Part shown: positions 3,052 through 3,169 of the stretch, piece by piece
Numbering within the stretch: the stretch's first letter is position 1
Layout of the letters: each line of letters opens with the position of its first letter
Virus record (IMG/VR): IMGVR_UViG_2531839454_000020
Length of the DNA stretch: 34,734 nt
Source of the DNA: a virus
Lineage: Duplodnaviria > Heunggongvirae > Uroviricota > Caudoviricetes
Direction: 5' to 3' (one strand)
The notes under the pieces: generated by a model
The model's database searches: none
What the model was told of the DNA's origin: nothing
What the model saw: only the letters and a program-made list of their open reading frames with translations
Made by a program: the position numbers and the translations under genes

Positions 3052-3169
3052 AACCTACACTACAAACCTACGCTTTAAAGGGATTGGCCTACACTAGTCA
3101 GTAAACCTACACTATAACACCCTCAAACCTACACTATGAAACCTACACACCTACACTAACCCTACACTT
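3052..3169 (+). repeat. array of 7 to 8 same-orientation CCTACAC(TA) direct repeats, irregular spacing
   Basis: CCTACAC at 3054, 3089, 3106, 3127, 3142, 3150, 3161 plus variant CCTACGC at 3066; most preceded by AAA. Confidence 0.7.

Follow-up and report, generated by a model that had tools for sequence, protein, structure and literature searches.

A short direct-repeat array and a covarying ~330-aa protein in an Escherichia coli prophage family: a candidate replication origin and initiator

The prophage and its control region

The window analysed here (the whole stretch of DNA, 34,734 nucleotides, IMG/VR record IMGVR_UViG_2531839454_000020) represents 34.7 kb from a temperate tailed-phage prophage of about 35 kb of E. 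coli, the host of the prophage being E. coli/Shigella. In addition to a gpA-type large terminase and a large serine recombinase (Table 1), the window encodes a lambda-type portal, a protease-capsid fusion, tail genes and an M15 endolysin. The fusion is a 666-aa ORF (10729-12729) that joins the major capsid protein to an S78 prohead protease domain. The small terminase is Nu1-like (phrog_57, E 1e-11). Its gene lies left of the window start, outside the window (1139-1693 in locus L001 and 18783-19337 in L143), about 5.7 kb upstream of terL, with the leftward operon, the array region and the Rha operon in between, a separation that is unusual for gpA-type packaging modules. Beyond the integrase, the Rha-like protein and the small terminase, the non-structural genes had no match in any family library used. 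No replication gene (helicase, loader, primase or polymerase) was recognisable in the 35.3 kb prophage, no CI-type repressor was recognisable in the phage, and Rfam (gathering threshold) and tRNA scans of the window gave no match. Three paralogous HTH-like proteins share the motif G-x-S-x-x-x-(F/Y)Y-x-x-(M/L)KK: a 64-aa protein (2306-2500), a 77-aa protein (5729-5962) and the C-terminus of a 201-aa protein (5991-6596), all on the minus strand. None of them matches a known family.

This prophage family is present in about 1% of complete E. coli genomes. No cultured relative was found among 50,697 phage records (best large-terminase identity 43%), and a scan of species-representative genomes with the large terminase (TerL) uncovered no relative. 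The prophage of strain DEC5A (NZ_CP038394) is 35.3 kb long and interrupts hicB. At least three insertion genes are used by the family, namely hicB, ycdX and a cytosine permease gene (L143/L144, L180 and L182), implying several serine-integrase specificities. A literature search on hicB-inserted prophages returned nothing relevant.

The array lies in about 1.5 kb without a long ORF (2200-3745), in which no CDS is annotated in RefSeq relatives. A DNA search of this 1.5 kb region against the 50,697 phage records gave a single type of match, 75-84 bp of unannotated T4-like phage DNA. The matching segment (3554-3637) is 76-84% identical to intergenic DNA of T4-like phages (Krischvirus, JSE and others), and in Shigella phage JK32 it is located between two hypothetical genes near hoc.

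To the left of the array, a near-consensus leftward promoter would serve the small HTH gene first and the 331-aa gene after it. It lies about 200 bp from the array, and its equivalents in L004 and L016 lie 45-200 bp left of theirs, all according to consensus scans. The perfect palindrome CATTGACAGTTGTCAATG (2841-2858) contains the -35 element of this promoter, and together they look like the operator of a phage transcriptional switch. The TTGAC-N-GTCAA core of the palindrome is also retained in L145 and L146. The AT-rich tract that abuts the array holds the near-palindrome ATCAAAATTTTTGAT (3033-3047), a second copy of which starts at 2884. Further left, the hairpin at 2235-2264 marks the start of the 331-aa gene and the border between the swapped gene and the conserved interval. 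It may act as a terminator of rightward (antisense) transcripts.

To the right of the array, GC-rich mini-hairpins are found at 3299-3311 (ACGGCgtaGCCGT), 3312-3322 (GCGCgaaGCGC, which contains GCGAAGC) and 3392-3404 (ACGCCtacGGCGT), and GCGCGAAGCGC recurs downstream of the type B array described below. They are followed by two tetraloop-type hairpins, the second of which, GCAACCttcgGGTTGC, shows compensatory changes between loci (GCCCCtacGGGGC, GCAGCgaaGCTGC and GCAACCtgcGGTTGC in relatives). The hairpin block as a whole (3299-3542) could prime synthesis on single-stranded DNA, be related to cos or form part of the structure of an RNA leader. A second motif, independent of array type (~AGAAAGGNATT), occurs 10 times in the window against 3.98 expected. 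Four of the 10 sites are clustered 190-340 bp right of the array (3357-3367, 3431-3441 and 3489-3510, with a further site at about 3417), the copies at 3489 (minus) and 3500 (plus) forming a palindrome, and one copy, AAAGGGATTGG, lies inside the array (3077-3087). The motif is also present beside type B arrays and in L145 and L146. It is probably bound by a conserved protein of the phage or the host.

Table 1 Features of the window that bear on the array
Feature	Position	Strand	Remark or basis
80-aa coiled-coil ORF	936..1178	-	just downstream of the 331-aa gene and swapped together with it
Gene of the 331-aa protein	1194..2189	-	proposed array-binding protein and candidate initiator; covariation, remote homology among types
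Hairpin with 12-bp stem and T-run	2235..2264	+	kept in all types
64-aa HTH-like gene	2306..2500	-	first of the leftward operon; variants shuffled relative to array type
Leftward sigma-70 promoter	2828..2858	-	TTGACA-17-TATACT, 11/12; consensus scans only
AT-rich tract (25% GC)	2970..3050		candidate unwinding region; abuts the left array edge
Type A array, eight direct units	3052..3169	+	consensus ~AAACCTACACTA; seven CCTACAC and one CCTACGC
Segment right of the array	3170..3409		replaced jointly with the array between types
Cluster of second motif	3357..3510		~(T)AGAAAGG(G/T)ATT(G/T)G; type-independent
Tetraloop-type hairpins ATCCCttcgGGAT and GCAACCttcgGGTTGC	3514..3542	+	
Rightward promoter candidate	3676-3703		conserved; ~510 bp right of the array; consensus scans only
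gpA-type (lambda-type) large terminase	6684-8591		
Large serine recombinase (integrase)	31588-33282	-	

Array types and the ~330-aa protein

The array had been noticed from the sequence alone as seven perfect copies and one variant of CCTACAC in one orientation within about 118 bp, and this description was confirmed. Exact CCTACAC units start at 3054, 3088, 3106, 3128, 3142, 3150 and 3161 on the plus strand, and the variant CCTACGC starts at 3067 on the same strand. The units had also been described as usually preceded by AAA, which is the case for five of the eight. CCTACAC occurs 13 times on both strands of the window, compared with 1.84 +/- 1.28 expected (largest shuffle 6) from 100 dinucleotide shuffles of the whole window, both strands counted, and seven of the 13 copies lie inside 114 bp on a single strand. 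The array is also strongly asymmetric in composition, with 40 C against 9 G on the plus strand. A motif search over the window and its relatives indicated that the extended unit is essentially confined to the array, since AACCTACACTA with at most one mismatch recurs outside it just at 969 and 1971 (minus strand), and that arrays occupy an equivalent position in 24 loci. The stray minus-strand CCTACAC copies at 971 and 1973, inside type A genes, were considered as a second site; this idea was rejected because the type B gene has no copies of its unit.

Start-to-start spacings are 13, 21, 18, 22, 14, 8 and 11 bp, in agreement with the range of 8 to 23 bp given by the sequence-only reading. That reading called the spacing irregular, which holds only in part, since many of the values are near multiples of 10.5-11 bp. 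For the window array alone the helical phasing (R 0.70) was matched by 16% of random arrays and is not significant. It is significant in relatives: 0.8-1.2% of random arrays reached the values of L002, L004, L016 and L145, and none of 3000 reached that of L018. In several array types, unit starts fall mostly at a period of 10.2-11.2 bp, which speaks for binding to one side of duplex DNA rather than for an RNA motif. A CRISPR array, already dismissed from the sequence, does not fit either. In CRISPR arrays the repeats measure about 24-48 bp, the unique spacers are about as long and cas genes are usually close by, whereas the units here are 7-12 bp at 8-22 bp spacing and no cas genes are present.

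Related loci were gathered through the large terminase (22 viral loci) and through remote relatives of the 331-aa protein (two loci). Five further loci came from complete E. coli genomes, among them the DEC5A locus, which is absent from the type counts below. Scanning viral contigs for the exact pattern of two spaced units proved too unspecific to be of use. In 23 loci, 3.3-4.4 kb separate the array from the large terminase downstream of it; in the remaining one of the 24, L003, the distance is 2.8-2.9 kb. Five array types were distinguished by their units: type A with CCTACAC(TA) in 11 loci, type B with TTTTGCCCCTGAA in nine, type C with TCCCCG in two, type D with GATGTACAAG together with CCGGTATTAG in one, and type E with CCCTGCACTAA in one. 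The type A array is therefore conserved in 10 loci besides the window. Arrays span 120-450 bp and have units of 6-13 bp, of which the window array has 8 and those of relatives 6-15 or more. They are split by an AT-rich spacer in types C and D, and inverted copies of the unit were seen in types B, C and E, in B and C beside direct units.

Pairwise blastn comparisons between types indicated that two segments are exchanged jointly, corresponding to about 936-2190 and about 3050-3410 of the window (to 3556 in some loci). The DNA between them (2190-3050) is recognisably conserved across types. This gene-array interval of about 0.8 kb exists in two main variants, i1 and i2, and all combinations with types A and B are present (A-i1, A-i2, B-i1 and B-i2). 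The AT-rich left flank is conserved in types A, B (L021), C and D, and the flank of the i2 variant is less AT-rich. In type B loci with the i2 variant (L004, ~5975-6000; L182, 3850-3910), two or three direct units and one inverted unit of type A are found just left of the B array, over tandem leftward promoters. They may be a relic of recombination with an ancestral A array or allow cross-talk with a co-resident type A prophage.

Three outgroups (L147, L148 and L149), whose large terminase is about 50% identical, keep the small HTH gene and hairpin-rich non-coding DNA, and one of them adjoins Salmonella-type fljBA. They have an (ATGTCT)6 microsatellite or 26-38 nt repeats in place of the short-unit arrays (7794-7830 in L149) and an endonuclease VII gene directly before the large terminase gene. 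In all three, the slot equivalent to that of the module is occupied by an ORF6N/Rha + ANT protein of the 'antirepressor' class.

Every neighbouring protein was clustered at 90% identity over the 24 loci. The type of the ~330-aa protein agrees with the array type in 24 of 24 loci and for all five types. Its N-domain is the only neighbour without a variant cluster that spans array types, while all eight other neighbours (TerS, HTH64, p149, p110, Rha, HTH77, p201 and TerL) have such clusters. For TerS, one variant cluster is common to A and B loci and another to C and D loci. No mismatched pair of protein and array was seen despite free recombination of the interval. The co-divergence is also graded: a protein with a 76% identical N-domain keeps the CCTACAC unit, and a 45%-identical protein is paired with CCCTGCACTAA, whose core differs by one base (CCTgCACTA versus CCTaCACTA). 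The matching may partly reflect linkage, because a double crossover in the middle segment keeps the flanks matched without selection; frequent exchanges just outside both flanks nevertheless argue for selection. Given this covariation, the ~330-aa protein (1194-2189, minus strand) very probably binds the array as its cognate site.

In the window, this protein is 331 aa long and its gene lies 865 bp left of the array. It comprises a basic, beta-rich N-domain (aa 1-163), a coiled coil, an acidic C-part and a tail ending in ...LHDAIYDTNYSAYAYAA. The five protein types share this layout, with a basic and apparently beta-rich N-domain of about 155-171 aa and a C-part in which 21-30% of residues are Asp or Glu, followed by a short tail, and they are remote homologues (E 2e-5 for A-D and 8e-8 for C-D). 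Between the A and B proteins the N-domain is barely alignable, the C-part is 37% identical and the tail ...LHD.(I/M)Y.TN(Y/F)S is common to both. A protein that couples a variable domain for recognition to a shared effector part should show such a layout. The C-termini of types A (...YAYAA), C (...LDFAA) and E (...VRRAA) resemble ssrA-like ClpX degradation tags, so the protein may be unstable. The 80-aa ORF that is swapped with the gene is taken as an accessory rather than a common partner because it is missing at that position in type B loci. In type C loci a second gene of about 333 aa, C2 (2640-3641 in L016; 203-1204 in L181), lies just downstream of the type C gene and has no clear similarity to the ~330-aa family.

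The family is tiny, with three representatives at E < 1e-10 among 1.84 billion proteins, and all its named members are annotated 'hypothetical'; one type B variant occurs on at least 1000 contigs. Its proteins had no real match in Pfam, PHROGs, NCBIfam or PADLOC, gave coiled-coil noise or nothing against PDB sequences (single-sequence and profile searches), and had no tblastn match in plasmids or phage records. The family HMM found no match among 32 more distant relatives, and no ATPase or helicase motif was found in the protein. An AlphaFold2 model of the N-domain from an alignment of eight sequences reached a pLDDT of 49.6, and a Foldseek search of this model against the PDB gave nothing significant (best E 0.14, TM up to 0.27); therefore, we make no claim about the fold. 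An hhalign comparison of the N-domain family with Rha/ORF6N domains gave a probability of 0.1%.

Possible roles of the array

The most likely role of the array and the ~330-aa protein is that of a phage replication origin and its initiator, to which we assign a probability of roughly 45%. The physical binding, the origin function and the recruitment of host factors that we infer could be arranged as follows. Several copies of the protein, joined by the coiled coil, would bind the direct units through the variable basic N-domain, mostly on one face of the helix. The resulting complex may distort or open the adjoining AT-rich DNA, and the more conserved acidic C-part and C-terminal tail would then recruit host replication proteins. 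Recruitment from the host is proposed because no helicase, loader, primase or polymerase of the phage's own is recognisable.

Several features favour an origin. The units are many, short, co-oriented and phased, with AT-rich DNA beside or within the array, and the array lies away from the promoters (about 200 and 510 bp), far for a simple operator. The gene order of strong promoter, small HTH gene and ~330-aa gene resembles lambda PR-cro-(cII)-O, the protein is modular, and the prophage contains no other replication candidate. The transcriptional switch seems to lie elsewhere, in the independent pair of small HTH protein and palindrome. As in iteron origins, direct repeats are clustered in non-coding DNA and, as the covariation suggests, are matched by a protein that the element itself encodes. 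The AT-rich element of such origins may have its counterpart in the 25% GC tract at 2970-3050 and in the spacers of types C and D, the flank of the i2 variant being less AT-rich. The inverted unit that adjoins the direct ones in types B and C is a further origin-like feature, and SaPI Rep and PLE RepA, described below, are precedents. Against an origin, the ~330-aa protein has no homology to known initiators or DNA-binding folds and no relatives on plasmids. No DnaA box lies near the array (the nearest with at most one mismatch is at 2502), no IHF consensus was found within 3 kb of it, and no GATC cluster lies near it. The module is also placed in the central control region between divergent operons, and the equivalent slot of the outgroups holds the regulator-class ORF6N/Rha + ANT protein. 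In addition, the phage has no recognisable CI-type repressor either, so that the argument by elimination serves a repressor role equally well.

The latter role, less likely but still a serious rival, would make the array the operator of a type-specific transcriptional regulator and thus a determinant of immunity or of the switch. Bound all along the array between the divergent early operons, the ~330-aa protein would act as a repressor or activator of the leftward promoter, the rightward promoter or both, and so define heteroimmune groups within the phage family. The position of the array between a strong leftward promoter and a rightward operon, the lack of a recognisable CI-like repressor and the regulator-class proteins in the outgroup slot all speak for it, and swapped repressor/operator modules are the classic pattern of heteroimmune phages. 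Strain UTME-9 (NZ_CP157110) also carries two otherwise near-identical prophages (with identical TerL, Rha, 201-aa and 77-aa proteins) whose modules differ as A versus B. The small HTH protein differs between them as well, which confounds this case, drawn from the one complete genome with two copies that was examined. However, 8 to more than 20 co-oriented units of 6-13 bp over 120-450 bp are unlike typical operators, the promoter candidates of the consensus scans lie about 200 and 510 bp away, and no other promoter of the genome carries the units. What looks like the switch itself is the small HTH protein together with the palindrome over the leftward promoter, both of which vary independently of array type. 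A repressor/Cro pair would need common operators.

Improbable, though less so than the remaining alternatives, is another kind of nucleoprotein site for the ~330-aa protein: one that works like a centromere or an anchor, that serves superinfection exclusion or as a decoy, or that assists packaging near the unmapped cos of this gpA-terminase phage. Plasmid centromeres of the parC/ParR kind are repeat arrays bound by a partner protein, and the phased short direct repeats and the coiled-coil protein recall them. GC-rich hairpins and the second repeated motif lie just right of the array. However, no partition NTPase is encoded, the element integrates through a serine recombinase at hicB, ycdX or the cytosine permease gene, the protein has no plasmid relatives, and TerS does not track array type.

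The other explanations concern different partners. In lambda and phage 21 the specificities of cosB and Nu1 co-vary, and here too a large terminase of the lambda gpA type occurs with a Nu1-like small subunit; cosB-like sites for the small subunit are nevertheless very unlikely, given that TerS clusters span A/B and C/D loci, that another protein is the one that co-varies, and that terS lies far to the left, beyond the leftward operon. Equally hard to sustain is binding by the nearby HTH proteins or the Rha-like protein, which the sequence-only reading had put forward as partners. They are encoded within 3 kb and three of them are paralogous HTH proteins, but variants of HTH64, HTH77, p201 and Rha are all common to several array types, and it is the 331-aa ORF that tracks the array instead. 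The usual targets of HTH proteins this size are dyads, for which the palindromes at 2841-2858 and 3033-3047 would qualify, and the array consists of asymmetric direct repeats. A protein-binding RNA motif in a transcribed leader would account for the strict same-strand orientation, and transcription across it could start from a weak rightward promoter-like site (2862-2891), but the phasing of about 10.5 bp indicates duplex DNA, inverted units occur in types B, C and E, and Rfam gave no match, so that this explanation too has little chance. The general suggestion of a protein-binding array finds support, and the array is conserved in close relatives. Among the three functions first considered for it, initiator iterons are favoured, a transcription-factor site is a live rival, and recognition by the terminase small subunit is disfavoured by the TerS variants that span types.

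Extending the origin reading to the whole family, we tentatively propose that the ~330-aa proteins may form a new family of sequence-specific DNA-binding proteins, dissimilar as far as can be detected to every known fold, that serves as the initiators of common but unstudied E. coli/Shigella prophages, with at least five origin specificities and with host enzymes only. This gives a concrete, testable function to the largest orphan protein of the family, in the best-studied bacterium. The five natural specificity variants with their DNA units offer an unusually clean system for how a new domain reads 7-12 bp. Should the module prove to be an origin with its initiator, it would represent a new initiator family and illustrate how replication begins in a phage that brings no replication enzymes; should it serve immunity instead, its repressor/operator design would be a new one. 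Whichever role holds, these prophages could be typed by their array.

Comparison with known systems

Modules of this kind, in which a repeat array is exchanged along with a matching protein that the element encodes, are known. Neither the protein family nor the unit sequences nor the phage family is described in any of the collections and libraries searched.

Among the repressors, P2 C and Mu c bind direct repeats, but at few sites that overlap promoters, and are small HTH or ribbon proteins. The array resembles them in its asymmetric repeated sites in a control region and in the swapped protein/site module that defines types, and differs in the many sites away from promoters and the 330-aa non-HTH protein.

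Iteron plasmids (pSC101, P1, F, R6K, RK2 and pPS10) carry iterons of 17-22 bp at a regular spacing of about 22 bp, DnaA boxes and often IHF sites, and their Rep proteins have tandem winged-helix domains. The order of array, promoter and gene, the phased direct sites and the adjoining AT-rich tract are similar here. Unlike in these plasmids, the locus has no Rep-family match, no DnaA box or IHF site near the array, no regular spacing and no plasmid homologues. In satellite phage P4, the type I iterons bound by the alpha protein, a primase-helicase, are TGTTCACC octamers that are unevenly spaced in ori and crr. The array shares the octamer-size units, the several copies and the uneven spacing, but no primase-helicase is encoded here.

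Two other mobile elements offer further parallels. The Rep-ori systems of SaPIs and other PICIs have iterons of 5-6 nt in 6-12 copies that flank an AT-rich segment, located just downstream of rep in opposite orientations on the two sides, and Rep of the SaPIs combines an AAA+ helicase that loads itself with an iteron-binding winged-helix domain (PMC9371898). Very short element-specific iterons in many copies, cognate specificity and AT-rich DNA beside or between clusters (types C and D) are likenesses. The lack of an ATPase or helicase motif in the protein and the almost uniform orientation of the units set the present locus apart from a SaPI-type origin. PLE RepA, of the RepA_N family, is an initiator without helicase or primase activity of its own; it has an N-terminal DNA-binding domain and a variable C-terminal domain, and its semi-palindromic iterons lie in a non-coding region (PMC7145576). 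The initiator proposed here would likewise work without such activities, and its repeats too lie in an intergenic region of a mobile element, but the protein has no detectable RepA_N similarity.

The lambdoid replication modules, composed of O and the ori iterons, occur in the specificity types of lambda, 434, 21, P22 and phi80. Lambda itself has four 19-bp iterons inside the O gene and, in addition, the loader gene P. Unlike in lambda, the units here number 8 to more than 20, measure 6-13 bp and lie in non-coding DNA, 0.9 kb upstream of the gene; a loader gene is missing, and the protein has no sequence similarity to O. Like lambdoid O, however, the ~330-aa protein appears to combine a type-specific N-terminal DNA-binding domain matched to direct repeats with a more conserved C-part for a common partner. 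As in the lambdoid modules, its gene follows a strong early promoter and a small Cro-like gene, and gene and repeats are exchanged as a unit among mosaics.
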